Under the pieces are notes generated by a model. It saw only the letters and a list, made by a program, of their open reading frames with translations. It was not told the origin of the DNA and did not search any database. From the NCBI GenBank assembly GCA_964517845.1, contig CAZFCQ010000006.1, positions 13,817 through 77,816 of the forward strand: DNA of 64,000 nucleotides, given 5' to 3'. Source of the DNA: an uncultured Thermoprotei archaeon (GTDB lineage: Archaea > Thermoproteota > Thermoprotei > QMSL01 > B3-G16). This document shows, one piece after another, positions 33,001 through 58,239 of the stretch. How positions within the stretch are numbered: the stretch's first letter is position 1; the number at the start of each line of letters is the position of its first letter. Made by a program: the position numbers and the translations under genes.

Positions 33001-36000
33001 ATGGTACATGCGATATTCCTCAATGCATGCCCGAATTGCGGGGGCGAGATTACTGATGATAGGCTCCTTCTAGCACTTCCTTGTCATAATTGTCTACCTG
33101 AAGATATAGCACAGAGACTTATTAAAGAATATGCAAGCTCTCCTCCTCTTATTTTTAAATCAAAAATACTTGAAGTACTTAAAGAGCTAAATAACGCTAA
33201 GAATTATGAAGAGGTAATTAAGCTTGATGAAGAGCTTAAAGAATTAGAACAATTGTTTAATAAGATAACAGGTAGCCGTTTATGGAGCGCTCAGAGGACT
33301 TGGGCAAAGAGAGTTCTTAAAGGTAAGAGTTTCGCTATTATAGCTCCTACAGGAGTTGGTAAGACAATGTTCGGCTCGATAATGTCAATATACTTAGCTT
33401 CAAAGAACAAAAAGTGCTATATCCTTTTACCCACTACTGTGCTTGTAAAACAGGTCTTTGAGAGAGTAAAAGAATTCATCAAACGTGCAGAAATTAACAT
33501 AGGAGTATTAGCATATCACCCTAAGATCCTTAGGGAGGAAGGTAAATCTATCTTTTTTGAAAAATTAGAATCTGGTGATTTTGATATATTAATTACTACT
33601 TCTCAATTTTTAGCACGAAATTTTGAACGATTAAAAAATCTACGCTTTGATTTCATATTTGTTGATGATGTTGATGCATTGTTAAAATCCTCAAGAAATA
33701 TTGATAGAGTCCTTATTCTCTTAGGAATACCTGAAAATTTAATAGAGAAAGGGTTAGAATTGATACGTTTGAGAAGAAGGATCCCTATCTTTATAGCATT
33801 AACCAAGCAGAATGAATCGTATAGGGAGCAATTAGATGAAATTGTTAGGAAAGTTAAGGAAATAGGAGAAGAAATCAGACAAAGTATAAGCAGGTATAAA
33901 GTAGGAGTATTAGTGGTTTCTAGTGCTACTGGAAGGGCTAAAGGCCTAAGGGTGCGACTCTTTAGAGAGCTACTAGGTTTTGAAGCAGGTGCACGTTCTG
34001 AGTTTATAAGGAATATACAAGACATATATTATAGTCCTAAAGAGGATCTAATGAATGCTACCCTAAAGATAATAAAGAGATTCGGTACAGGTGGAGTGGT
34101 CTTCATTCCTATTGATAAAGGAAGTGAATATGCAAAGGAATTATGTGAGTTTCTTAAGAAACATGAAATAAATGCAGAAGTACTTCTTGCTAGTAAAAAG
34201 GGAGATCAAATCGAACGCTTTCTTGCAGGTGAATTAGATGTGCTCATAGGCATAGCTACTTACTATGGCCTACTAGTACGAGGACTTGATCTACCTCAAA
34301 GAATTCGTTATGCTGTATTTGTGGGTGTACCTAAGCTCAGATTTAGTTTAGAAACTAAAGAAGCTCATCCATTTAGAATAGCTTCTCTCCTCTTTGACTT
34401 GAGAGAATACTTAGAGGGTAAGGAACGTGAAGATGTCGATAGGCTTTTTGTACGTATGATGCGCTACTTAAGGGAATTATCTCCCTCACGGATAGCTGAG
34501 ATAAGACGAGCTATAGAAGAGGGAAAGAAGCTTGAAGGAACTTTAGGAAAAATACAACAACTATTTGAAGAAGGCTATAAGAAGGTACGAGAATTACTTG
34601 AACGTGAAGACATACGAAGAAAACTAAGTGCAAGTCCATATATATTATTAGAGGAAGTTAATGGTACTTTGAGAGTAATCGTTCCTGACACTATGACTTA
34701 TATTCAAGCTAGTGGACGGACTTCAAGAATGTTTGCTGGTGGCATTTCTAAAGGAGCATCTATTGTAATAATTGATAATGAGAAGGTGTTTGAAGGGTTA
34801 GTCAGAAAAACCCGTTGGTTCATAGAGGACATCTCATGGAGGCCTTTAGAGGAGATTGATATAGACTCTTTAATAAAAGAGATAGATAGAGATAGAGAGA
34901 CTATCAGAAGTCTAATGGAGGGGAAACTTAGAGTTCAATTTAAGGATCCTGTTAAAAGTGCATTACTAATCGTTGAGTCACCTAGCAAAGCCAGAACTAT
35001 AGCTAATTTCTTTGGTAGACCTTCAATAAGAAGAATAGGAAGATATGTAGTCTATGAGACGAGTACTGGCGCTTACATGCTTTCTATAATTGCAAGTGGA
35101 GGCCATATATTCGATCTAGTTCTTACATCTGAAGATTTCTATGGTACTAGAATTATTGAAGACCGTTTCATACCTGTTTATTCAACCATAAGGCGCTGTC
35201 TAAAATGTGGAGAACAATTTGTAGGCCTTGATAAATGCCCCCTGTGTAAATCAGAAGAATTCTATGATAAGGTTGAAGTAGTCGATATACTAAAGGATCT
35301 AGCAAGAGAGGTAGACATAGTTCTTATAGGTACAGATCCCGATACTGAGGGAGAGAAGATCGGCTGGGATATAGCTACTGTAATAAGACCTTATACAAAC
35401 TATATAAAGCGTATAGAGTTTCATGAGATAACTAAGCGAGCAATACTTGAAGCCCTTGAACATCCTAGGGATATAAATGAAAAATTAGTAGAAGCTCAAA
35501 TAGTTAGAAGACTTGAAGATAGATGGATAGGCTTTGCTTTAAGTGAAGAACTATGGGAAGCTTTTGAGAATAGACGTCTTTCAGCAGGAAGAGTTCAAAC
35601 ACCCGTACTTGGGTGGATCATTAAACGTTATGAAGAGCATAAGAAAAGTGTAAAAGATTTCATATATCTAACATTAGAGAATGGTTTAAGATTAGTACTT
35701 GAAAATCCGCCAATAGAGGGTAATGTTAGAGCATTTCTAGATGAGCTAAAAGAAAAAGAATGCACAGTAGTGAATACTGAAACCTATGAAGATAGAATAA
35801 ACCCTCCCCCTCCATTTACGACAGATGCACTACTAAGAGAAGCAAGCTTTAGACTCGGCATTGACGTTATGAAGACAATGAGCATAGCTCAAGATCTGTT
35901 TGAGTTCGGTTTAATAACATATCATAGAACTGATAGTACTCGTGTATCCTCTGTAGGGAAAGCTATAGCAAAAGAATACATAAGCGAAAACATAGCTCCT

Positions 36001-36723
36001 GAATACTATCAAAGTAGAGACTGGGGAGTTGGAGGAGCACATGAGTGTATCAGACCTACCAGACCATTAGATACTGATAAGCTAAGCCAGCTAGTACGTG
36101 ATGGAATAATAAGAACCCCAAGGCCACTTACGTGGCTTCATTATAGAGTTTATGATATGATTTTTAGGCGCTTTCTGGCCAGTCAGATGAAACCAGCAAA
36201 AGTCATTAAACTTAAAGCTATTTTGGATATTGCTGGAATTAGGAAAGAGATCGAAGGTATTGTTGATATAACCTATGACGGATTTACTAAGGTATATCCT
36301 ATAGAAGAAAGTATCTTTATACCTAAGATGAAGACGGGAGATAGTTATCGTATAATTGAAGCCTCACATGCTAAACGACCTAGCATTATACTATTTAGTC
36401 AAGGTGATATAGTACAGCTTATGAAACAAAGAGGTATTGGTAGACCATCTACTTATGCTAAGATTGTACAAACACTACTCGAACGACGATATGTAATCGA
36501 GTCACAGAAAAGACGTAGGCTTATCCCTACGAAGCTTGGAATTCAGGTCTACAAGTACCTTTCAAGTAATTATAAAGATCTAGTTTCTGAGGAGCGTACA
36601 CGCAAATTAGAAAAGCTTATGGACATAGTGGAGTTAGGTAAAGCAGATTATCAGAAAATAATCAAGGAGCTTTACTATGAAGTAAAGACTGCAGTAAAGA
36701 TTCAGAGAAGAAATAATGCTTAA
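33001..36723 (+). CDS. rgy: Reverse gyrase
   Basis: 1240 aa; N-terminal zinc finger CPNCGG...CHNC, SF2 helicase Walker A APTGVGKT and DDVD box, Toprim ESPSKART, topo IA catalytic Tyr region ITYHRTDSTRVS. Confidence 0.95.
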   Translation: MVHAIFLNACPNCGGEITDDRLLLALPCHNCLPEDIAQRLIKEYASSPPLIFKSKILEVLKELNNAKNYEEVIKLDEELKELEQLFNKITGSRLWSAQRTWAKRVLKGKSFAIIAPTGVGKTMFGSIMSIYLASKNKKCYILLPTTVLVKQVFERVKEFIKRAEINIGVLAYHPKILREEGKSIFFEKLESGDFDILITTSQFLARNFERLKNLRFDFIFVDDVDALLKSSRNIDRVLILLGIPENLIEKGLELIRLRRRIPIFIALTKQNESYREQLDEIVRKVKEIGEEIRQSISRYKVGVLVVSSATGRAKGLRVRLFRELLGFEAGARSEFIRNIQDIYYSPKEDLMNATLKIIKRFGTGGVVFIPIDKGSEYAKELCEFLKKHEINAEVLLASKKGDQIERFLAGELDVLIGIATYYGLLVRGLDLPQRIRYAVFVGVPKLRFSLETKEAHPFRIASLLFDLREYLEGKEREDVDRLFVRMMRYLRELSPSRIAEIRRAIEEGKKLEGTLGKIQQLFEEGYKKVRELLEREDIRRKLSASPYILLEEVNGTLRVIVPDTMTYIQASGRTSRMFAGGISKGASIVIIDNEKVFEGLVRKTRWFIEDISWRPLEEIDIDSLIKEIDRDRETIRSLMEGKLRVQFKDPVKSALLIVESPSKARTIANFFGRPSIRRIGRYVVYETSTGAYMLSIIASGGHIFDLVLTSEDFYGTRIIEDRFIPVYSTIRRCLKCGEQFVGLDKCPLCKSEEFYDKVEVVDILKDLAREVDIVLIGTDPDTEGEKIGWDIATVIRPYTNYIKRIEFHEITKRAILEALEHPRDINEKLVEAQIVRRLEDRWIGFALSEELWEAFENRRLSAGRVQTPVLGWIIKRYEEHKKSVKDFIYLTLENGLRLVLENPPIEGNVRAFLDELKEKECTVVNTETYEDRINPPPPFTTDALLREASFRLGIDVMKTMSIAQDLFEFGLITYHRTDSTRVSSVGKAIAKEYISENIAPEYYQSRDWGVGGAHECIRPTRPLDTDKLSQLVRDGIIRTPRPLTWLHYRVYDMIFRRFLASQMKPAKVIKLKAILDIAGIRKEIEGIVDITYDGFTKVYPIEESIFIPKMKTGDSYRIIEASHAKRPSIILFSQGDIVQLMKQRGIGRPSTYAKIVQTLLERRYVIESQKRRRLIPTKLGIQVYKYLSSNYKDLVSEERTRKLEKLMDIVELGKADYQKIIKELYYEVKTAVKIQRRNNA

Positions 36724-46939: not shown

Positions 46940-47166
46940 TAATTATGCTCTATTTCATTAAGTGAGTATACATACATATTTAAGCGTTAAGTACAGTAAA
47001 GTCTTCATGTTTTTTCTTCAGGGTTTTTAATGAAGAACTTACTTAATTCTATAGTACCTCCAATATTACCTTGATAATACTTAGGTATCATGCATTCTTA
47101 CTGATAGTTTACTTCTTTTAAACCATGTCATAGATTTTGTCATTGAGACTATGGAGGTGGACTCAC

Positions 47167-50055
47167 ATGAAGAATATCTGGAATACAATATTATGCATCA
47201 TGATCATGCTCCTCGCCTTCCTTACACCTCTCTCTTTTAATTTAATTAAAGCTAGTAATGTACATAAAATATACTTACTGTACCTTGCCAATGATGCCGA
47301 TTTTATAGATATAACTCCATCCATTAAAGATATGCTTATTCAAAGATTCGAGAACAATGATCTAGTTACTGTAATAACGGATATGGATTCCTACAGAGAG
47401 GTATTAACGAATGCTTCTCAAGGTGATATTATAGTTAATCTTCATGGTTCTGTAATCCCTCTACCACCTCCATATACAAGCTTAGGTTCATCAGGAGCTT
47501 TTAAGTTCATTAAAGATTTAGCATTAAATATTAGTAGAAGAGGGTTTGCGTTTATTAACATTGCTGGTTTACCTTTTAAGTATGCTTCTAATAAACGTGA
47601 ACATATATTTATAGAACTTAATGAAGAAGGAATAATTCAATTTTTCAAGGTTCTTAATTATACTGTTAAAGTAGATGGCTTTATAAAATCTGCAGGAGGC
47701 TTAGACTATGCTTCCATAACTGTTGATGGTATAAATGCCTCTAAACTTTCAGATATTTCTCTTCCTACAAGAGTTTCAGCAATATATAGCATTTCAACTA
47801 ATCTAGCGCCGCTATTTACACTTTATGCAACAGATGTAGTTGGATACCTAAGACCTTTTGAAACAGTTGCTGCTTATCCCCTTGGAAAAGGATTCTATAT
47901 ACATGTGGGTATGTGGTACGAGTCCGATAATATAAAGATAGATGTGGTCATTGCTTCATTAGTTTACCTTACTAAACTCGCAGAGCTTACTCCTGAAGTA
48001 TACATAATTGCACTTAATGATACTGCATGGTACGGTGTAAATCCATATGTTTCTCTCCAATACCTTAAAGAGAGACTTAATATGCTAAATATAAGCTACT
48101 ATATAGTCGACTCTAACAAAGCTCTATACGAGTTAATAATGTCTGATATGCGGAATGTAGTAGTAATTAACCTTCATGGTTCTGTAATCCCGATTCCAGA
48201 GGAATACCTCACATCTTCAGAGAATACTAAGACCTCTGTTTATGAATACATAGTTGACCTTGCTAGATGTGTAAGAGATAAGGGATGGATATACGTGAAT
48301 GTCGCTGGGTATCCTTTCTCTATAGTAGCGTGTGGAAAATCTCAGTTCTGGTATGTTACTAATACTGCTGGTTTATCGACTTTCTTAGCAGCAGCAAGTA
48401 ACTTCACCGTAGGTGGTTATTGCTGGGATGGTCTCTCTGATAGACCATTAGGTGCTATTTTAACAGATGATGGAATAATGACCGTGAGAGAGCTTAACCT
48501 AAAGCCTTGGGAAGTTTGGGGAGCTATCATAGCACAATATAGCCTCAATACCTCTGCTCCATGCCTCACCTCACTCTACGATACGTTCTTACTAATAAGC
48601 GATAGGAAATATAGAGCAGTAGCTAGCTTAAGATATGGTCAAGGGATCTTTGCTTTCATAGGCTTAGGACAGCAAGTTCCCGATTCTGTAAAAGCATCAC
48701 TAGGCTTTTTACTAATTTCAATAGTTAAGCCTAAGAAATTAACAATTTGCGTATCTGATTCAGAACTAAAGCCTATAGGAACTGTTGAAGTGTCTATTAC
48801 TGTAGGTAATACGGAAATAGAAAAAGGCTATACTAATGAGAGTGGTATCTTTAGTACATTTCTAAGCGGTGGTATCTATACTATTGCCTTATTCCACGAG
48901 GGTTTCTCTCCCCTTACTTTACAATACAGACTACTAACTCTTCCAGGGAATCTTAATGTAACTTTAGAACCCATACAACTCAAGATACGTGCTATAGATA
49001 TACTTACACAAGATCCTGTAGTAAATGCTACCGTAACTATAGTTGATGCCTATGGCAACAATGTATCTTCTATGTTAACGGATTCACAAGGATATGCTAT
49101 TTTCAATTTACCATCAGGTTCTTATTACGTGGTAATACAGGCAACTGGATATACTCAGTATAAGAGCTCGCTCATAGAACTATCTAGCACTACGTACTTA
49201 GAGGTTCCTTTAAGGAGATCTTTCAAAGGCCTTTACATCCGTGTAATAGATGCCAATTCAAGGAGGCCTCTTTCTTCAATGAGCGTAAAAGTATTTGAAG
49301 ATGAGTCACTAATTTATGAAGGTATCACTAATGAGGATGGCCTTATAACGGTCAACTTAGCAAACTCCTCGACTCTACGAGTTGAAGTCTATGATGGTAA
49401 TATGCTAGTTGGAATGAGCGCATTTACAGCTTCTAACCTTATGAGTTCCATGATAGTAGAGATCCCAGTCTTCAAGGACGTTAAGTACAAGAGTCTCTAT
49501 CAAAAGGAAGTCCAGCTTTATAAGAGTTTAAAAAGAGAATACGAATCTCTGCTTTCTAAGTATAACTCTTTACATAAGAAATACAATTCTTTAAGTGATA
49601 AGTATTCGGAACTTAGTAAGAGCTATTCGAAGCTTAAAGAATCATTCCTTGAGCTAGAAGATAGATATTTAGAGATTAACAAAGCATACTTCATTCTAAA
49701 TAGGACCTTTAATGAGCTAATGGTTAATTATACTGAGATGTTAGAAAGCTTCGAGAATTTAAATAATGAATATAAGAGCCTCGAGGTAAACTTTACTAAG
49801 CTTAACGATATGTATATACAATTAGCAAGTAATTATACAGTACTTGAAGATCAATTTAATGAACTAAAGGCTTGGAACGCAACACTAACTACAAAATATA
49901 ATGAACTATTAGAAGTAAAGAATAAGTATGAGAGTTTAAAGAGGACTTGGCCCCTAGTATCCTTGGCAATAGCTATCTTAAGTATGGTAATTGGGACGGC
50001 ATTAGGCTATGCATATGGTAAACGTAGAGGTGAGTACTTAGTTATAAATCCTTAG
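47167..50055 (+). CDS. Large surface protein: signal peptide, internally duplicated N-terminal domains, 3x transthyretin-like repeats, extracellular coiled-coil stalk, C-terminal TM anchor (locus B, gene 1)
   Basis: Signal peptide MKNIWNTILCIMIMLLAFL (ORF opens at 47137); duplicated ~230-aa modules (IVNLHGSVIPLPPPY / VINLHGSVIPIPEEY); three CarbopepD_reg-like repeats; heptad YxSL coiled coil; terminal TM WPLVSLAIAILSMVIGTALGYAY then KRRGE. Confidence 0.65.
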   Translation: MKNIWNTILCIMIMLLAFLTPLSFNLIKASNVHKIYLLYLANDADFIDITPSIKDMLIQRFENNDLVTVITDMDSYREVLTNASQGDIIVNLHGSVIPLPPPYTSLGSSGAFKFIKDLALNISRRGFAFINIAGLPFKYASNKREHIFIELNEEGIIQFFKVLNYTVKVDGFIKSAGGLDYASITVDGINASKLSDISLPTRVSAIYSISTNLAPLFTLYATDVVGYLRPFETVAAYPLGKGFYIHVGMWYESDNIKIDVVIASLVYLTKLAELTPEVYIIALNDTAWYGVNPYVSLQYLKERLNMLNISYYIVDSNKALYELIMSDMRNVVVINLHGSVIPIPEEYLTSSENTKTSVYEYIVDLARCVRDKGWIYVNVAGYPFSIVACGKSQFWYVTNTAGLSTFLAAASNFTVGGYCWDGLSDRPLGAILTDDGIMTVRELNLKPWEVWGAIIAQYSLNTSAPCLTSLYDTFLLISDRKYRAVASLRYGQGIFAFIGLGQQVPDSVKASLGFLLISIVKPKKLTICVSDSELKPIGTVEVSITVGNTEIEKGYTNESGIFSTFLSGGIYTIALFHEGFSPLTLQYRLLTLPGNLNVTLEPIQLKIRAIDILTQDPVVNATVTIVDAYGNNVSSMLTDSQGYAIFNLPSGSYYVVIQATGYTQYKSSLIELSSTTYLEVPLRRSFKGLYIRVIDANSRRPLSSMSVKVFEDESLIYEGITNEDGLITVNLANSSTLRVEVYDGNMLVGMSAFTASNLMSSMIVEIPVFKDVKYKSLYQKEVQLYKSLKREYESLLSKYNSLHKKYNSLSDKYSELSKSYSKLKESFLELEDRYLEINKAYFILNRTFNELMVNYTEMLESFENLNNEYKSLEVNFTKLNDMYIQLASNYTVLEDQFNELKAWNATLTTKYNELLEVKNKYESLKRTWPLVSLAIAILSMVIGTALGYAYGKRRGEYLVINP

Positions 50056-50076: not shown

Positions 50077-52836
50077 ATGAATAATACTACCATAGTTATC
50101 GGTAGGCAGGAGAATGGAGAACCTTTTAATATTAATATAGACTCACTATTAAAGCATACTATAGTATTAGGTGCAACAGGATCAGGAAAGACTACACTAT
50201 GTAAAGCGATAATAGAGGAATTAGCGTTAAGGGGCTACCCTATAATTGCTATAGATCCTAAGGGAGACATAGGCGCTTTAGCAATTGCCTCTCCTAATCT
50301 AAATTTCCGTCCTTGGTCTGATATCGAAGCTAAGGAAAGTGGAATGGATCCAGAGCTATATGCTGAAAAGCTCAGAAAACTTTATTTAAATGAGCTAGCT
50401 AAATGGGGGATTACACTTAATAGAATTAGGAGTTATGTAGAAAATGTCCATGTCACTATATATACTCCTAGGAGTACTGTAGGAGTTCCTCTTTCTATAA
50501 AGCCTTCATTAAATCCATTACCTAATATCGAGCAGATAATTGCTGAAGATAAAAGCATACTGTATGATGCTATCGACAATACTGTTTCACTCTTACTTAA
50601 ACTAGCTGGATATAGCGATAAAAATACGCAAGAACATGCTCTACTCTCTCAGATAATAGAATTTCATTGGCTCCAGAAAGAGGAATTATCATTAGAAACC
50701 CTAATCCAGGAAGTAATAAATCCACCTTTTGATAGGATTGGTTCCTTAAGCGTAGAAGAATTTATTCCACAAAGAAGTAGGCTTAAGCTAGCTCGTAATC
50801 TTAACATTCTGCTCTCTCATCCTATGTACAAAAGCTGGTTAGAAGGTGAAACTATCGATTTTGACAAATACTTTAATCAACGAGGAACAATATCGGTAAT
50901 AGACCTTAGATTTATGAGTACTTTAGAAGAGAAACAGTTCTTCATAGGAGCTTTTTTGCAGGAGTTTTATAGATGGTTACTACGTAAGGGCGGCACTTCT
51001 AAGCTTAGGCTCGTACTCTACTTTGATGAGCTTGTCGGATTTATACCCCCTGTAGGTAAGCCACCTTCTAAGACAGGTTTATTACTTTTAATTAAACAAG
51101 GGAGAGCTTTTGGTTTAGGTTGCTTACTAGCTACTCAAAACCCTGCTGATATAGATTATAAAATACTATCAAATGCTGCGCATAGATTCATAGGACGCTT
51201 AGCAACTAAACAAGATATAGACAAAGTAAAAAGAGGTCTTAACATAGATGAAAACCTAGTAGAGACAATTCCTCGTCTAAAACCCCGTACATTCCTATAT
51301 CACAACTATGAAACAGGCAAAACTACGATAGTACGTTCTCGTTGGCTTATGACATACCATAGAGGGCCTCTCCAACCAGATGAAATAAGAAAACTCATGA
51401 AGAAAGAAAAAAAGGTCTATAAAAATGAACCCCCTCCTCTAAAAGACCTGATCCTAATTAAGCCACGAATAACAGCTGAGGAAGTAACCAGATTACTAGA
51501 AGATTTAGGCTTTCACGTTATTAACATATCAGAGACTGTCATTAGACACCCATACTACTTAGTCCGCCTCTCTACTGATTTCAAAGTAAAAGAGGGGAAA
51601 ACTATCAATTATAAGGAAAACCTAATTGTAGTAATGAATAGAAAAGAGCCTATGCTTATAGAGAGTTTAAGAGGAAGAGAACCCTCAGAAGTTCTAGTGC
51701 GCGGATTCGTTAATGGTAATAATATGTCTTTCTCCAAGGTAGGAAGGTTACTTCAAGATCACGAGGTAGTAAGGATTATACATAATAAACTCAAGCTTAA
51801 AGTCTTCTATATAGCTCCTCTTGATCGTATAGTATTTAATGAAAATGAGCTTGAGAAGCTCACCAAAGAGATCGAGAGAAAGATCAAGAGTGAATTAGTT
51901 AAAGTTGAAAATGAGCTTAAAGTAAAATTTGAATTACATAAAAAAGAGTTAGTAAGCTCCAAACCATTACTTGAAGCGGAGCTAAAACTTAGGCAGAGTT
52001 ATTACAATTCTTTAAGTTCTAGAATACGTCGTCTTGAACGTATAAGGAATGAGTTACGTTATAGGAAGAAAGAAACTGAGGAAATCTCTAAAGAGCTTAA
52101 GGAACTCAGACGCGAACTAAGATCTCTTAAAAAGAAAATTAACAAGCTTAAAGAGGAATTAGAGAATATCAATAAGGAGTTACTACTCATGGATTCTACT
52201 TTCAAACAAACACTTGAAGAAGTAAGGAGGAAATACTACTCATACCTTAAAGAGGCTATTCATGAAATTAAGATACATCCAAGAATTAAGATAGTAGAAA
52301 AGGGATATGCAGGTATCCTCAAGTATGAAATTAAGGTGAAGTATGCTAACGCTTTTCTAAATCTATCGCTCAATCCTTATTCTCTTTCTCTTAACTTTGG
52401 TAGGTGCTCCATATGTGGCTCTTTAGTCATCAAATATTTAAATGAACTTAATTCAAAAGACAAGATACCGCTATGTAACTACTGTGGTTCTGTATTATGT
52501 GATGTCCATGCTTTAAGATGTTCTTTTTGTCACACTACTGTATGCATAAGGCATGTTAATTTCTGTTCTGTATGTGGCAGGCCTCTGTGCCCTAATCATA
52601 CTCATAAATGTTCTGTATGTAATACCTATCTCTGCCCTGATCATACTGCTTTCTGCTCTATATGCAAGGCTGCCCTCTGTCCCTCTCATGTGGTATACTG
52701 CTCTTTATGTGGTAAACCGCTCTGTAGCCATTGTGTAATATATAAACGAAGGATCCTCTGGAAGAGGCCTATTTGCCCTAATTGTCTAGGGAGCTCTAAG
52801 GATGAGGACTCGTTTACACTACACGTTGGATATTAA
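50077..52836 (+). CDS. HerA/FtsK/VirB4-superfamily (DUF87-like) P-loop ATPase fused to a long coiled coil and a C-terminal array of tandem zinc knuckles (locus B, gene 2)
   Basis: 919 aa; Walker A LGATGSGKTT, Walker B LVLYFDELVGF, LLATQNPADIDYKILSNAAHRFIGRL arginine-finger region; ~180-aa coiled coil; six tandem 15-aa C-S-x-C-x4-C-x2-H units. Confidence 0.7.
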   Translation: MNNTTIVIGRQENGEPFNINIDSLLKHTIVLGATGSGKTTLCKAIIEELALRGYPIIAIDPKGDIGALAIASPNLNFRPWSDIEAKESGMDPELYAEKLRKLYLNELAKWGITLNRIRSYVENVHVTIYTPRSTVGVPLSIKPSLNPLPNIEQIIAEDKSILYDAIDNTVSLLLKLAGYSDKNTQEHALLSQIIEFHWLQKEELSLETLIQEVINPPFDRIGSLSVEEFIPQRSRLKLARNLNILLSHPMYKSWLEGETIDFDKYFNQRGTISVIDLRFMSTLEEKQFFIGAFLQEFYRWLLRKGGTSKLRLVLYFDELVGFIPPVGKPPSKTGLLLLIKQGRAFGLGCLLATQNPADIDYKILSNAAHRFIGRLATKQDIDKVKRGLNIDENLVETIPRLKPRTFLYHNYETGKTTIVRSRWLMTYHRGPLQPDEIRKLMKKEKKVYKNEPPPLKDLILIKPRITAEEVTRLLEDLGFHVINISETVIRHPYYLVRLSTDFKVKEGKTINYKENLIVVMNRKEPMLIESLRGREPSEVLVRGFVNGNNMSFSKVGRLLQDHEVVRIIHNKLKLKVFYIAPLDRIVFNENELEKLTKEIERKIKSELVKVENELKVKFELHKKELVSSKPLLEAELKLRQSYYNSLSSRIRRLERIRNELRYRKKETEEISKELKELRRELRSLKKKINKLKEELENINKELLLMDSTFKQTLEEVRRKYYSYLKEAIHEIKIHPRIKIVEKGYAGILKYEIKVKYANAFLNLSLNPYSLSLNFGRCSICGSLVIKYLNELNSKDKIPLCNYCGSVLCDVHALRCSFCHTTVCIRHVNFCSVCGRPLCPNHTHKCSVCNTYLCPDHTAFCSICKAALCPSHVVYCSLCGKPLCSHCVIYKRRILWKRPICPNCLGSSKDEDSFTLHVGY
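52474..52790 (+). repeat. Tandem 45-nt direct repeats (about six units) encoding the Cys/His zinc-knuckle array inside CDS 50077..52836
   Basis: Units such as tgttctgtatgtggcaggcctctgtgccctaatcatactcataaa, tgttctgtatgtaatacctatctctgccctgatcatactgctttc and tgctctatatgcaaggctgccctctgtccctctcatgtggtatac are visible in sequence. Confidence 0.8.
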
Positions 52837-52908
52837 TCCTTCTTACTATGTTTTGAAAAATTAGCTTAATATAAGTCGAGTGTTTTAGAACTCAATCGGG
52901 ACATTATA

Positions 52909-53715
52909 ATGCCTAGGTCGTTGATATTATTCCTCCTACCTAGGGGAAGAATCCCTGAGCCTGAGGAAATTTTAGACAAGCTTGAAGGAGCTTCTCTTAA
53001 GGAGCTTAGAGCTTATTTCGAGGAGAAAGATGATAAAGTGGGCTTAAGAAGGCTAGATAGCCTGTCTAAAATTATTGTAGGCTTAAATGGACGCTTTTCG
53101 AAGGTTAGAGCTACGTCTAAAGATGCAAGATTAATATTCAGCTATCTCTTTCGAGGAAGGTATTCTTACATATCTGGTGGAGAACGTAGAATAGGTGAAT
53201 ATGAAGTCTTAATGGAACATAATATATGGGTTAGGACATTATCTGGACTTATGGTGCTTTTTGATGTTCCTAAAAGGCGTATTGCCTATGCTCTGGCTCA
53301 ACTCATTTCATTAAGGCTATATGGTGATATAGTTTTAGTGAACCCCTTACATTTAGAACGTAGTCATTTAAGTTCTATTGAGCGATGGGTTACCTCTAAG
53401 GAACATGAGGTCACAGGGAATATTATTAGGGCTACATTTCGAAGGGCGCAAGTAAATGGAACAATACTAGACGAAGTTTCTATAAAGAAAGAAGGACTTG
53501 ATGTAACAGAAGCGTACTTTAAAGTTAAGTCTTCTGCTCATGAGATATCAGCACTTACATTCGTTACACCTTTACTTCCAGAAATAGGCAGAAGAGTAAC
53601 TTGTAAACTAGATAATAGGGGTGGACTTATGATATACACTCCTAATTTACGAGATGTGGATATTGAGGTTATAATTTCTAGGCTAGAGAGGGTACTCGGC
53701 TTAATCACTAGCTAA
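52909..53715 (+). CDS. Hypothetical protein (locus B, gene 3)
   Basis: 268-aa ORF, same strand, 72 nt after the ATPase; no recognisable motif. Confidence 0.5.
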   Translation: MPRSLILFLLPRGRIPEPEEILDKLEGASLKELRAYFEEKDDKVGLRRLDSLSKIIVGLNGRFSKVRATSKDARLIFSYLFRGRYSYISGGERRIGEYEVLMEHNIWVRTLSGLMVLFDVPKRRIAYALAQLISLRLYGDIVLVNPLHLERSHLSSIERWVTSKEHEVTGNIIRATFRRAQVNGTILDEVSIKKEGLDVTEAYFKVKSSAHEISALTFVTPLLPEIGRRVTCKLDNRGGLMIYTPNLRDVDIEVIISRLERVLGLITS

Positions 53716-53771: not shown

Positions 53772-54764
53772 ATGAGCCTTAGAAATTTTTCTATCTCTAA
53801 GCTAAAAATGGATCTATCTCAAGGCTCTACCATAGCGATATCTGAAGCTCTTGTTTTTCTTTCGGATGTTATTTCGAAAGCCACCGATATTAACTCACTA
53901 ATAAACAGATTATCCGATACGGCGTTAATGCTCTTCTCAGCAAGACCTGCTTCTGGGCTTCTTTTTAATGCTCTTCGCTCTTTATTACTTTCAGCTCTCA
54001 GGCTAATTAAAGAGATGCCTGATGTTCACTTTGTTAAGGAGTCCCTCACGAAGGAAATATATCAACTAGTTAGCACGTACAAGAACGCATTAAAATCTAT
54101 TGCAACAATTGGTGTTAAGAGACTTGAAGATGACGATATTATATTAACTGGAACTTATAGCTCCACGGTCTTTAGCATTCTAAAGCAAGCCGCAGAAGAA
54201 GGGAAGCACTTAACTATATATGTAACAGAGTCAAGGCCAGGATCTGAAGGCCTTCAGTTAGCTAAGGATTTAAGTAAAATGGGCTTTAAAGTAGTACTGT
54301 TTGTAGACTCCGCTGTTAGATATTTTATGAAGGAGGTAGATAAGGTCTTACTGGGAGCTGAAGCAATAGCTGCTAATGGTGCAGTAGTCAGTAAAGTGGG
54401 TACTTCTCTTATTGCTTTAGCTGCTCATGAAGCTAGAGTAAGAGTATTTATAGCTACAAGTATCTTTAAGTCTAATCCAAGGACTATGCTTGGTGAATTA
54501 GTGACGTTAGAGGAAGCTTCTCCAGCGCTAATTATGTCTAAGGAAAGACTAAGAGAACTTAATGTTAACGTTAGATGTCCTCTATTTGAAGTTATACCAC
54601 CTGAATACATTGACGCTCTAATAACTGAGAGAGGGCTTATAGCTCCTCAAGCAGTACCCCTTATAATGCGAAGTCTTTATGGTTGGCCACCTGAACATAT
54701 AGATCTTGAGAAGTTAGCTAAGAGTTTAAAGAGGTATGTTAAAGAAGAGGTGAATTCTACTTGA
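53772..54764 (+). CDS. eIF-2B alpha/beta/delta-like family protein (IF2B/MtnA/R15P-isomerase family), paralog 1
   Basis: 330 aa; family hallmark ANGAVVSKVGTSLIALAAHEARVRVF and C-terminal PPEYIDALITE. Confidence 0.75.
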   Translation: MSLRNFSISKLKMDLSQGSTIAISEALVFLSDVISKATDINSLINRLSDTALMLFSARPASGLLFNALRSLLLSALRLIKEMPDVHFVKESLTKEIYQLVSTYKNALKSIATIGVKRLEDDDIILTGTYSSTVFSILKQAAEEGKHLTIYVTESRPGSEGLQLAKDLSKMGFKVVLFVDSAVRYFMKEVDKVLLGAEAIAANGAVVSKVGTSLIALAAHEARVRVFIATSIFKSNPRTMLGELVTLEEASPALIMSKERLRELNVNVRCPLFEVIPPEYIDALITERGLIAPQAVPLIMRSLYGWPPEHIDLEKLAKSLKRYVKEEVNST

Positions 54765-55747
54765 AAATTCCTCATGAAGTTTTAAAGATAATCGAGGATA
54801 TAAGAACCATGAGGGTACGAGGAGCAGGAAAAATAGCTAGAACTGCTGCTAAAGCATTAATAATAGCAAGTGAAGAGTACCGAGGCACTTCACTTAAAGA
54901 ATACCTCACCTATATGGAGTTAATTGCTGAAAGACTTAAAAATGCTCGTCCTACAGCTGTATCTTTACCTAATGCTGTTAACTATGTATTATCTCGATTA
55001 AAGAAAGCCAGTATGGAACCTTCATCAACCTTAAATAAAGCTAAATTTATAGTGAGAGAGTCTGCTAATGACTTCATTAAACGTTCATTTGAAGCAATCA
55101 AGAAAATCGGAGAAATAGGTTCTAAAAGAATTTCTGATGGCGAAGTTATCTTAACACACTGCAATAGTACTGCAGCATTAAGTGTTATTATCACTGCTCA
55201 TCATCAAGGTAAGCATATAGAAGTTTTTGCTACTGAGACTCGTCCTAAATTTCAAGGTCATATTACAGCAAAGATACTTGCAAAAGAGGGAATACCCATT
55301 ACATTAATACCCGATTCTGCTGTTAGGTACTTCATGAAAGATATAGATAAGGTAATAGTAGGCGCTGATACAGTTACTGCTAATGGTGCAGTAGTTAATA
55401 AGGTAGGTACTTCTCTTATTGCTTTAGCTGCTCATGAAGCTAGAGTAAGAGTATTCGTGGCTGCTGAAACTTACAAATTTAGTCCTGCTACTGTACTAGG
55501 TGAATTAGTAATGATTGAAGAGCGTGATCCTACTGAGGTAGTACCCCCCGAGTACCTTTATGAAAATTCAGAGGTTATCGTACGTAATCCTGCGTTCGAT
55601 GTTACACCACCCGAATACATAGACGCTATAATAACCGAAAAAGGCATTATTCCCCCTCAAGCCGCAATATTGATACTCGAGGAAGAGTACGGCTGGGTTC
55701 TAAAGGATTATTTCATTAAGGAACTCAACTTTGCTGAAGAGAGTTAG
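54761..55747 (+). CDS. eIF-2B alpha/beta/delta-like family protein, paralog 2 (TTG start overlapping upstream stop)
   Basis: 328 aa; ANGAVVNKVGTSLIALAAHEARVRVF and PPEYIDAIITE; start codon TTG at 54761 inside a TTGA overlap. Confidence 0.75.
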   Translation: MKIPHEVLKIIEDIRTMRVRGAGKIARTAAKALIIASEEYRGTSLKEYLTYMELIAERLKNARPTAVSLPNAVNYVLSRLKKASMEPSSTLNKAKFIVRESANDFIKRSFEAIKKIGEIGSKRISDGEVILTHCNSTAALSVIITAHHQGKHIEVFATETRPKFQGHITAKILAKEGIPITLIPDSAVRYFMKDIDKVIVGADTVTANGAVVNKVGTSLIALAAHEARVRVFVAAETYKFSPATVLGELVMIEERDPTEVVPPEYLYENSEVIVRNPAFDVTPPEYIDAIITEKGIIPPQAAILILEEEYGWVLKDYFIKELNFAEES

Positions 55748-56454: not shown

Positions 56455-58239
56455 CTATGGTATCATATTGGCTAATGACCTTAAAGTGTGTGTAGTCAAT
56501 ACGAAAAATACGACTGTAGTTAAGACTTTTCCATAGCTCTTATTCCAAGTTAATTGATATAACCCTTTAGCTGCAAGAATATGAAGAGGTAAGTTAAGGA
56601 TTAATCTACTTTGTATTGTAGCATTTGAGAATAAAAAAGGAATGGAAGTTGTAATGAGCCAAGAATCTAAAAGCCTATCTAATGGATTTTCATAATTTAA
56701 TGCTAGGGCACCTATAACAGCAAGTGTATATAAAAGCCAATTAGCAGTATACCCACCAACTAGAATATTCAGAGCGAAAGAGAGATTCTGACCGAGAAGC
56801 ATTAAGTTGTCAAAACTTAAAGAACTACTTAAAGTTCTATAACCTATTGAAACTCCTGGTAAGCTTTTCACTGCTATCGATCTTGCTAAATCCACTAATA
56901 CTGAAGGTGCTGTAACTTGCAAAAATACTAATGTACCTCTCTTGAAGTTAACTTTATGCTTTATAACGCTTAGTACGAGGTATACCGCCATTACTGCTAT
57001 ACTCATCTGCCATGTCCAAGTATGCGAAAGTGCTACAACTATTAACAATATTGCTACTATCGTAGCTCTTCTAACACTCCTTTCTTCAAGAATTTCAATA
57101 AATAGACTTTGTCCAACATACGCTAGATTTAACGCTAAAAGGTTTGCGTGATATCCTGCATAAATACCGACTAAGGTGTATATAGATAAGGGGGCTATCA
57201 TTACTGCCATAGCCGTTATCTCAAATCTCCATTTTCTCACAAGGTAGTATGTAACTAAGGGGTAGGTGATTATTGCTAATGATAATAGTATATGTGTTAT
57301 AACTAGATAATTCGTATCGATCAACTTCTCAATAAGATAGAGTAAGAGTAGTACTATAGGTCTGCTTCCACTCGATAAAATGAACGCTTTCTGCCAGGGA
57401 TTATCCTTCATTTCACTTAGCCAACGACTATAGTAGATTATATCGACAGTTACAGGAGAGTTATTAGGATTTATTGCAGGAGAATAGGGGTATAGTGATA
57501 GAATCGAGGAGACGATTGTTGCTATTAACAAGCTTATCTTGTTTCTTTTGTATTCCTTATGAGCAAGAAGCCGCTCTTCAGATGTTCTCATTATTAGACT
57601 TATTCCTTTTTTAGTTATCTTTATTCCTCTTATCCTTGTCAGGGGTATTAAAATTTTCCTGAAAAGCCACATGTATATGAGTATGATTATTAGTGCTATG
57701 GATAATTTATGTAGTGTATAGAAGACTCCTGTCTCTAATGGTACTGGTCCTGATAAAGGATTCTTAACCTCTAACGGGACTATCGAAATTAAGATCCAAT
57801 GAGAAAGTGCTAAGACTTCAAGTCCTAAGTAAATTATCATAAAGTAGCATAAAAGCTCCTCTAATACATCAAACTTATGTGCCTGATATACAAATACTAG
57901 TATCGACAAAATTCCCGTTACTAGGGCATAAATTTTAGGCAACCACCATGTTAGAAGCGTCAAACAAATTAATGGAATAGTGTATTTTATTAGAGCCTTT
58001 AAGGCAGGTCTCGTTCTAAGGCTCATAATAGAAAACGTTGTAATTCCCGGCAATAGTAGTAGTACATCAAGTGATGGTGATATGATAAATGGACTAGCTC
58101 TTTGAAGTATAGTAACCCTATTAATAGTTATAAGATAGACTGGTTCCAATAAATGAACTATATGAAGTATCATAACGAAAAGGTAACCTGCTATAGCTAA
58201 AGATGATAAACATTTATGAATCTCATTTAATCTTTTCAT
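56455..58239 (-). CDS. Polytopic integral membrane protein (13+ TM), possible GT-C-fold glycosyltransferase
   Basis: 594 aa, highly hydrophobic with one larger loop; no diagnostic motif seen. Functional guess comes from glycan-related neighbours. Confidence 0.35.
   Translation of the reverse strand: MKRLNEIHKCLSSLAIAGYLFVMILHIVHLLEPVYLITINRVTILQRASPFIISPSLDVLLLLPGITTFSIMSLRTRPALKALIKYTIPLICLTLLTWWLPKIYALVTGILSILVFVYQAHKFDVLEELLCYFMIIYLGLEVLALSHWILISIVPLEVKNPLSGPVPLETGVFYTLHKLSIALIIILIYMWLFRKILIPLTRIRGIKITKKGISLIMRTSEERLLAHKEYKRNKISLLIATIVSSILSLYPYSPAINPNNSPVTVDIIYYSRWLSEMKDNPWQKAFILSSGSRPIVLLLLYLIEKLIDTNYLVITHILLSLAIITYPLVTYYLVRKWRFEITAMAVMIAPLSIYTLVGIYAGYHANLLALNLAYVGQSLFIEILEERSVRRATIVAILLIVVALSHTWTWQMSIAVMAVYLVLSVIKHKVNFKRGTLVFLQVTAPSVLVDLARSIAVKSLPGVSIGYRTLSSSLSFDNLMLLGQNLSFALNILVGGYTANWLLYTLAVIGALALNYENPLDRLLDSWLITTSIPFLFSNATIQSRLILNLPLHILAAKGLYQLTWNKSYGKVLTTVVFFVLTTHTLRSLANMIP

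Follow-up and report, generated by a model that had tools for sequence, protein, structure and literature searches.

The window analyzed here, a 64,000-nucleotide stretch of contig CAZFCQ010000006.1 from an uncultured Thermoprotei archaeon, carries on its plus strand (50077..52836) a gene for a 919-residue, HerA-like ATPase that ends in an array of six cysteine-rich, 15-residue units. Our best explanation for this array, which taken as a whole we consider probable, is that it is a metal-stitched repeat domain with interleaved metal sites, attached to the ATPase in a docking or spacing role. The structural part of this explanation is likely, and the functional part is speculative. The features of the gene are given below, with the evidence used for each in brackets; the six units were defined by translation and by comparison of the units with one another. 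ORF stands for open reading frame, AF2 for AlphaFold2, pLDDT for the predicted local distance difference test score of an AF2 model, and aa for amino acids.

50077..52836, plus strand: whole gene, 919 aa, HerA-like ATPase with a coiled-coil hairpin and a putative C-terminal zinc-repeat array (ORF list, homologues, full-length AF2 model)
50077..51405, plus strand: P-loop ATPase domain of the HerA/FtsK superfamily, aa 1–443, without an N-terminal HAS-barrel (Pfam, Foldseek, PADLOC)
50170..50193, plus strand: Walker A, GATGSGKT, aa 32–39 (read from the sequence)
51010..51030, plus strand: Walker B stretch, LVLYFDE, aa 312–318 (alignment; AF2 beta strand E312–317)
51445..51837, plus strand: middle beta-rich domain, aa 457–587 (AF2 secondary structure)
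51841..52257, plus strand: antiparallel coiled-coil hairpin, helices aa 589–662 and 668–727 (AF2 secondary structure)
52258..52437, plus strand: small beta domain carrying the N-cap, aa 728–787 (AF2 strands E728–787, pLDDT >85; aligns across the family)
52405..52416, plus strand: N-cap CxxC (C777, C780), predicted to make up the first zinc site with C808/H811 (conservation; co-loss in the homologue P0046)
52474..52518, plus strand: unit 1, CNYCGSVLCDVHALR (C800, C803 / C808, H811)
52519..52563, plus strand: unit 2, CSFCHTTVCIRHVNF (C815, C818 / C823, H826)
52564..52608, plus strand: unit 3, CSVCGRPLCPNHTHK (C830, C833 / C838, H841)
52609..52653, plus strand: unit 4, CSVCNTYLCPDHTAF (C845, C848 / C853, H856)
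52654..52698, plus strand: unit 5, CSICKAALCPSHVVY (C860, C863 / C868, H871)
52699..52743, plus strand: unit 6, CSLCGKPLCSHCVIY (C875, C878 / C883, C886), the second pair being Cys-Cys
52744..52785, plus strand: basic C-cap hairpin KRRILWKRPI and terminal CxxC (C900, C903) (AF2 strands E888–892 and E895–899)
52786..52833, plus strand: C-terminal tail, probably disordered, aa 904–919 (pLDDT <50 for aa 907–919; not conserved)

In the translated ORF the six units are consecutive and in frame, follow the pattern C-x2-C-x4-C-x2-[H/C]-x3, and begin at aa 800, 815, 830, 845, 860, and 875, for a total span of 52474..52743. An initial annotation, made from the letters alone, had recognized six 45-nucleotide units, and the unit starts (52474, 52519, 52564, 52609, 52654, and 52699) agree with its coordinates exactly. 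The range it gave, 52474–52790, takes in all six units and the terminal CxxC, but misses the N-cap CxxC at 52405. Units 3 and 4 are the closest pair, at 69% nucleotide identity, and the C-x2-C with which the last unit ends is found in most family members too. The array is flanked by two lone CxxC caps, which stand 20 and 14 residues from it and ~120 residues apart. The N-cap, 20 residues upstream, lies in a G-R-C-x2-C motif, and in the family alignment C777 is invariant and G775 and C780 are nearly so. The terminal CxxC (nt 52774) is predicted to form the last zinc site with C875/C878; its C900 is nearly invariant, and the C-cap as a whole has a net charge of +5 over 20 aa. Altogether, 23 of the protein's 25 cysteines fall within the last 143 residues, and the ligand pairs, 14 in total, keep one uninterrupted 15-residue register.

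The motor to which the array is attached is a HerA-like P-loop ATPase of the HerA/FtsK superfamily. Its ATPase domain matches DUF87 (E-value [E] 3.9e-12; 47.2 bits against a cut-off of 23.2) and HerA_C (1.8e-10) in Pfam, and its sequence matches in the PDB are HerA proteins and YjgR. Foldseek with the full-length model returned the HerA of the SIR2/HerA system (8wld, 3.2e-14) and Sulfolobus HerA (4d2i, 6e-12), with further matches to DndH-C and VirB4 (entries 7es4 and 4ag6). These results bear out the earlier claim that the array is fused to the C terminus of a translocase-type ATPase. PADLOC gave generic HerA/mad8 matches only, the top one being mad8 (1.4e-22). The ATPase domain is conserved better than any other part of the family: within Walker A, residues G32, A33, T34, G35, G37, K38, and T39 are invariant and S36 is nearly invariant (23 family members), and D317 and E318 of the Walker B stretch are invariant in the family alignment. 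Presumably, the ATPase forms rings. The middle beta-rich domain has no family match, and the coiled-coil region has weak matches to the coiled coils of SMC, Rad50, and LmuB.

It should be noted that the protein is not a bona fide HerA of the HerA-NurA repair helicase. Just 31 residues precede the P-loop, so that there is no room for a HAS-barrel, and no NurA gene lies nearby. Curated HerA models score far below their cut-offs (e.g., NCBIfam HerA_Thermprot, 23.6 bits against 800). The HerA, SIR2-HerA, DndH, and VirB4 ATPases resemble the protein in the P-loop core fold and motifs, whereas it differs from the HerA-type systems in having no HAS-barrel, in having no NurA, SIR2, or other known partner nearby, and in its extra coiled-coil hairpin and putative zinc array.

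Probable pairing of the metal ligands

In naming the ligand pairs we call the N-cap a0, the CxxC pairs of the units a1 to a6, the C-x2-H/C pairs of the units b1 to b6, and the terminal CxxC b7. A total of 264 array proteins were screened for degenerate stretches flanked on both sides by intact units that share one register. In 30 distinct cases, from 22 of these proteins, a unit that had lost its a pair and kept its b pair was followed by a unit that had kept a and lost b. The reverse pattern was never found as a two-unit gap among the 264 proteins, and six cases involved the complete loss of one unit. Within the ATPase family, joint loss was seen for (a2, b3) in P0032, P0042, and P0046, and for (a3, b4) in P0060 and P0077. 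The caps behave in the same way, in that (a0, b1) are jointly lost in P0046, and the terminal CxxC and the last unit's a pair go missing together in P0003, P0004, P0006, P0007, and P0008, all of which retain the b pair of that unit.

Because co-loss of a(i) and b(i+1) was seen 30 times and the reverse not at all, the comparison supports an interleaved pairing in which the predicted site i is built from a(i) plus b(i+1). A chain of this kind needs a lone pair at each end, and the two lone CxxC caps fit this need exactly. The predicted sites are then the following.

Predicted site 1: C777, C780 with C808, H811
Predicted site 2: C800, C803 with C823, H826
Predicted site 3: C815, C818 with C838, H841
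Predicted site 4: C830, C833 with C853, H856
Predicted site 5: C845, C848 with C868, H871
Predicted site 6: C860, C863 with C883, C886
Predicted site 7: C875, C878 with C900, C903

Under this scheme, each unit would contribute its a pair as a CxxC knuckle and, after a gap of four residues, its b pair (C-x2-H/C), and neighboring sites would overlap like the links of a chain. The result would be a continuous run of cross-brace (RING/B-box-like) half-fingers, not a row of separate fingers, with the ends of the chain closed by the lone pairs C777/C780 and C900/C903. The 14 ligand pairs would make up seven tetrahedral sites, five of them Cys3His and two Cys4. Both the sharing of zinc sites between neighboring units and the mixture of C2CH and C4 types had been anticipated by the initial annotation, and the co-loss pattern and the predicted sites agree with it.

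The alternative that bears most directly on these data is that each unit is an independent CCCH knuckle with its own metal, comparable to the retroviral CCHC knuckle and arranged like beads on a string, the flanking CxxC pairs being a separate ribbon or unrelated. There are indeed four potential ligands within 12 residues in every unit, and the six whole-unit losses between intact neighbors are in keeping with independent knuckles. However, every one of the 30 co-losses would then leave two crippled knuckles, the lone CxxC caps are conserved with the array and each is lost along with the adjacent half-unit, and the best sequence matches (B-box1 and p44, described below) belong to the cross-brace type of finger, where this spacing provides ligands for two different zinc ions. 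We therefore regard independent knuckles as improbable. The retroviral-type knuckle itself (C-x2-C-x4-H-x4-C) was rejected as a model for the unit, since the spacing here is C-x2-C-x4-C-x2-H and the co-loss contradicts self-contained units.

Predicted fold and known zinc modules

The tail was modeled with AF2 as aa 725–919, using 26 aligned tails, and the array reached a pLDDT of 97–98; in the full-length model (mean pLDDT 83) the array, aa 788–905, scored ~90–94. Structure prediction, which the initial annotation had proposed as a check of the tail region, thus gave a confident fold. Short paired beta bridges occur immediately before each ligand pair, and in the full-length model it is the base of the coiled-coil hairpin, not the tip, that leads into the array.

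Searches with the tail returned little in the way of global similarity. Foldseek against the PDB gave no significant global match (best E 0.025; query-normalized template modeling score ≤0.22), and its local matches were cross-brace two-zinc modules, namely Rim2 (2a20), rabphilin (1zbd), PHD, LIM, the TRIM28 B-box, Pirh2 CHY (2dkt), and RBR. By sequence, nothing in the PDB fell below E 0.37, no Pfam or NCBIfam model matched the tail at threshold, and the Pfam B-box and RING models did not match at E ≤ 10. The sole Pfam model to touch the tail, the double zinc ribbon DZR (PF12773), was dismissed, since it scored 14.5 bits where the cut-off is 27.3 (E 0.041). A three-unit profile, built from 63 segments and searched against PDB sequences, had as its top matches MID1 B-box1 (E 0.021) and the C-terminal finger of TFIIH p44 (0.027), followed by the piggyBac cysteine-rich domain (CRD; E 0.064) and FYVE domains. 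In the p44 and B-box1 alignments, C-x2-C-x4-C-x2-C lines up with C-x2-C-x4-C-x2-[C/H] of the query at equal spacing. The two pairs of this stretch bind two different zinc ions in both p44 and B-box1.

Cross-brace ligation of zinc is a well-known principle. B-box1 (MID1, PDB 2ffw) and the p44 finger (1z60) share with the array the local motif C-x2-C-x4-C-x2-[C/H] and the presence of further pairs on either side; in their cross-brace, pairs 1 and 3 take one zinc ion and pairs 2 and 4 another, an arrangement that obeys the a(i)+b(i+1) rule. These are closed domains of ~40 residues with two zinc ions and eight ligands, whereas the array is open-ended, keeps a strict 15-residue period, and would have seven sites here and more than 20 in other proteins. 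The best local Foldseek matches, the FYVE-type, rabphilin/Rim2, PHD, and LIM domains (2a20, 1zbd, 2cjs, and 2rgt), are also two-zinc modules, with knuckles on short hairpins, but the matches cover 45–70 residues only and none reproduces the extended array.

The CHY domain of Pirh2 is reportedly a beta-spiral with aligned, interleaved zinc ions. This N-terminal zinc-finger domain of Pirh2/RCHY1 has six zinc sites (PMC10148881). The domain (2dkt) resembles the predicted array in that many zinc sites are packed contiguously into one small domain, but the match is weak (E 0.78), the spacing is different, there is no regular 15-residue repeat, and the context is that of a eukaryotic E3 ligase. Thus, the open-ended chain with a 15-residue period has no matching solved structure or family model among those searched. 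We found no description of the array or of the ATPase family in the literature, where an earlier description is possible because relevant work on FtsK-HerA proteins and prokaryotic treble clefs was not covered.

From these comparisons we infer that the bound metal is zinc, and the array would be a rigid rod with a length set by the number of units. The same interleaved fold might instead hold iron in a rubredoxin-like manner, or serve as a redox or metal sensor in which oxidation or loss of metal at heat switches the ATPase. Sites of the Cys4 and Cys3His types can hold Fe as well as Zn, sequence alone cannot separate the two metals, and the host is a hyperthermophile (as indicated by the reverse gyrase at 33001..36723). 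On the other side, the modules that come closest in sequence and fold are without exception structural zinc fingers, 76% of units retain the His at position 12, as is expected of zinc sites, and there is no redox pointer in the neighborhood. An iron or sensor version of the fold accordingly seems unlikely to us.

A further possibility is that the a and b pairs of different chains share metals, in the manner of the Rad50 zinc hook, so that the array would act as an intermolecular zipper that glues together protomers or two rings. Co-loss tells which pairs are partners and does not tell cis from trans, and the protein does have a long coiled coil, in the region with the weak Rad50/SMC matches. 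However, AF2 folds the array of the monomer on its own with the high confidence given above (pLDDT 97–98), a single chain, caps included, supplies all 14 pairs of a closed set, and in the model the array comes after the base of the hairpin and not after the tip. Such a zipper is, in our judgment, very unlikely.

Distribution and age of the array

The homologue search covered 5.8 billion proteins and gave 1862 matches at E ≤ 1e-3, and tails were surveyed in the best 120 of these. An array with an intact frame was present in 94 of the 120, in Thermoprotei, Nitrososphaeria, and Woesearchaeota, with two to six units. The fusion, which the initial annotation had called unusual, is instead the rule in this archaeal branch. 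The tails have a common layout, consisting of the N-cap G-R-C-x2-C, two to six units in strict 15-residue register, the basic hairpin, and the terminal CxxC. The number of units differs between clades and is constant within them. Exactly five units occur in 77 of the 94 tails, those of the Nitrososphaera-type proteins that dominate the list and in which the first unit has C-x-C. Close Thermoprotei relatives have six units and other Thermoprotei have two or three, and the tails of Woesearchaeota have five, including some degenerate sites. A frameshift-like end was seen in only one of the 94 tails (P0071). Degeneration of the tail in relatives, which the initial annotation had named as the outcome that would count against it, was thus not what the survey found.

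Among the close relatives, P0001 (near-identical) and P0002 (58% identical) both carry six units. The closest database relatives of the ATPase are labeled Thermoprotei archaeon. The nearest copy, P0001 (919 aa), is listed as 100% identical, and its unit 1 reads CDAH in place of the CDVH of the window (aa 810); this is a variable, non-ligand position.

Bacterial relatives were sought by scanning one genome per GTDB species with the ATPase core (aa 24–445). Proteins of ~820–850 aa that are 36%–42% identical to this core (loci L010–L088) are widespread in Verrucomicrobiota, Planctomycetota, Acidobacteriota, Chloroflexota, and Nitrospirota, and the bacterial proteins examined in this size range have no units and essentially no CxxC. 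Most of them finish in a short conserved beta segment (...K.DI.V..V.L.W.P...) without a cysteine array, and this bacterial ATPase family appears to be uncharacterized. A genome scan that used a single protein found no relative. Given that the bacterial relatives have no units, the array is an add-on of the archaeal branch, and is neither a one-off fusion nor universal in the family. That a HerA-like ATPase gained the array long ago, as a C-terminal extension kept by selection, is part of our overall explanation, and we hold it to be probable together with the rest.

When the six 45-nucleotide units are compared pairwise as DNA, their mean identity is 0.49, compared with 0.285 ± 0.018 (maximum 0.34) for pieces taken at equal spacing from this ORF, and autocorrelation at lag 45 is 0.43, compared with ~0.27 at other lags. 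Identity between units peaks at codon position 2, and Tandem Repeats Finder (TRF) reported no repeat in 51500..53500, even at a score of 30. The 45-nucleotide period is therefore a protein-level one that comes from conserved Cys and His codons, without recent tandem duplication of DNA. The period had been described initially as clear; it is real, but it is weak. With only 49% identity between units and no signal from TRF, the repeat is an old and selected one and not a slippage tract. A recent, slippage-prone tandem repeat, as the initial annotation had it, is ruled out by these two results, by the six units common to P0001 and P0002, and by a copy number that is fixed within clades. Two short ORFs are embedded in the array.

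52553..52738, plus strand: 61-aa out-of-frame ORF within the array, probably spurious (ORF list)
52513..52689, minus strand: 58-aa antisense ORF within the array, probably spurious (ORF list)

Both are most likely spurious because they lie wholly inside a gene whose reading frame is maintained all the way from Thermoprotei to Nitrososphaeria; the first had been noted and called spurious already, and we come to the same view. That the whole tail is a degenerating or slippage-made low-complexity sequence without selected function, as the variation from two to six units between lineages and a recent duplication elsewhere (P0128, below) might suggest, is scarcely credible given that frame and ligands are intact in 94 tails of distant archaeal classes (77 with exactly five units), that the units are so diverged at the DNA level, and that P0071 is the sole frameshift-like end.

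The repeat is not confined to ATPases. A HMMER search of 1.84 billion cluster representatives with a profile of the tail matched 735 representatives at E ≤ 1e-3 and 291 at E ≤ 1e-10. The top match, P0121, was set aside as a false positive that matches the C-cap only. Other HerA-like clades carry the array in proteins of 1000–1280 aa, one of them from an Anaerolineae bacterium. Many of the matches are non-ATPase proteins, among them some in which an unknown N-terminal domain of ~330 aa and a coiled coil are followed by 10–29 units. There are also fusions to a Mrr-type restriction nuclease (P0224 and P0187) and to a VWA domain (P0127). No Pfam or NCBIfam model covers the array in the proteins with long arrays, and all of the array proteins that were looked up are named "hypothetical" or "ATP-binding."

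The longest uninterrupted run, 23 units, is that of P0128 (aa 372–795), and includes eleven near-identical double units of 30 residues in which an Asp replaces the His ligand (CNSCKKQFCQTDRTR CAECDLEFCRNDAGE). P0128 is the product of recent duplication in two-unit steps, unlike the old repeat of the window. In P0224, P0187, P0195, P0127, P0122–P0125, and P0143, the repeat stands behind Mrr-type nuclease, VWA, or the unknown ~330-aa domains, usually after a coiled coil. This layout of a variable head and a constant tail is, by analogy, reminiscent of conflict systems. In PADLOC scans, which covered P0123, P0143, and P0195 among these proteins, the first two had no match and P0195 had a weak coiled-coil match only.

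Neighborhood and possible role

The other genes of the window that were considered are listed here.

47137..50055, plus strand: 972-aa surface protein (hydrophobic N terminus, CarboxypepD_reg domains, long coiled coil, C-terminal membrane anchor)
52909..53715, plus strand: 268-aa protein directly downstream of the ATPase (no match in Pfam, NCBIfam, or PADLOC)
53772..54764 and 54761..55747, plus strand: two paralogous IF-2B-family genes (Pfam 3e-67 and 3e-96)
33001..36723, plus strand: reverse gyrase, 1240 aa (Pfam zf_Rg, DEAD, Toprim, Topoisom_bac)
56455..58239, minus strand: 594-aa ORF (no Pfam match at E ≤ 1e-5)

The reverse gyrase identifies the window as the chromosome of a hyperthermophile. 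The gene for the 972-aa protein ends 21 nucleotides before the ATPase gene, and the two are still adjacent in the contigs of P0002 and P0003; the topology of the protein is SlaB-like, and it has a weak NCBIfam match to SlaB (2e-4). A gene of similar size to that of the 268-aa protein (266–270 aa) is found at the equivalent place in the two closest relatives. The 4-nucleotide overlap of the IF-2B genes suggests that they may be translationally coupled. PADLOC returned nothing for the neighbors of the ATPase.

Only the two closest relatives keep the surface protein, the ATPase, and the 268-aa protein together as a trio, and in them the wider synteny is preserved as well. In distant lineages the neighbors include riboflavin genes (Nitrososphaera), TFIIB and, judged by domain content, a putative ABCE1 (a woesearchaeon), and, in other lineages, various metabolic genes. 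We dropped the notion that the operon is conserved, because the distant lineages have unrelated housekeeping neighbors and the trio is restricted to the two closest relatives.

As to function, we speculate that the array may serve for docking or spacing, as a stiff and heat-stable element attached close to where the coiled-coil hairpin has its base, and that it would engage a partner protein or nucleic acid and would not take part in catalysis. This suggestion is made by analogy, because the repeat is rod-like, its length is fixed within each clade, and the N-terminal modules that precede it are varied.

Several points weigh against the explanation that we prefer, that of an interleaved, metal-stitched domain with a docking or spacing role. 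In the co-loss screen there were 52 single half-site losses in which the presumed partner was retained, often with Asp, His, or Glu as the substituted residue, and P0011 retains the terminal CxxC though its last a pair has only one Cys. It is probable, then, that three-ligand or alternative-ligand sites exist, and the pairing rule has exceptions. The putative geometry of the seven sites is derived from sequence and comparative patterns. Since the matches to B-box, p44, and FYVE fall short of significance (E 0.02–2.4), they amount to a resemblance of mechanism and do not establish homology. With regard to function, gene neighborhoods differ between lineages, and the speculative docking or spacing role is argued from analogy. 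The array has a net charge of about +1 per unit, approximately enough to offset the negative charge that a Cys3His-Zn site formally carries; the charge of the array was accordingly discarded as an uninformative sign of DNA binding, one that leaves protein and nucleic-acid binding undecided.

A broader proposal can be put forward tentatively. The 15-residue unit may represent an undescribed, open-ended "polymerized cross-brace," a zinc-stitched solenoid with one metal site per unit, that is used as a length-tunable rod behind interchangeable modules for sensing or scaffolding, possibly in conflict systems, with the five-unit form having become fixed in an uncharacterized ATPase of the ammonia-oxidizing Nitrososphaeria. 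If the interleaved arrangement is correct, the architecture would be an unusual one, in which a chain of overlapping zinc sites takes the place of a row of separate fingers. A metal-stitched rod that grows in 15-residue increments and has built-in thermostability could also be a possible rigid spacer for protein design. For the organisms themselves, the array marks a large, conserved, and uncharacterized ATPase family of Thermoprotei and soil ammonia oxidizers, and would provide a handle for finding the partners of its motor.

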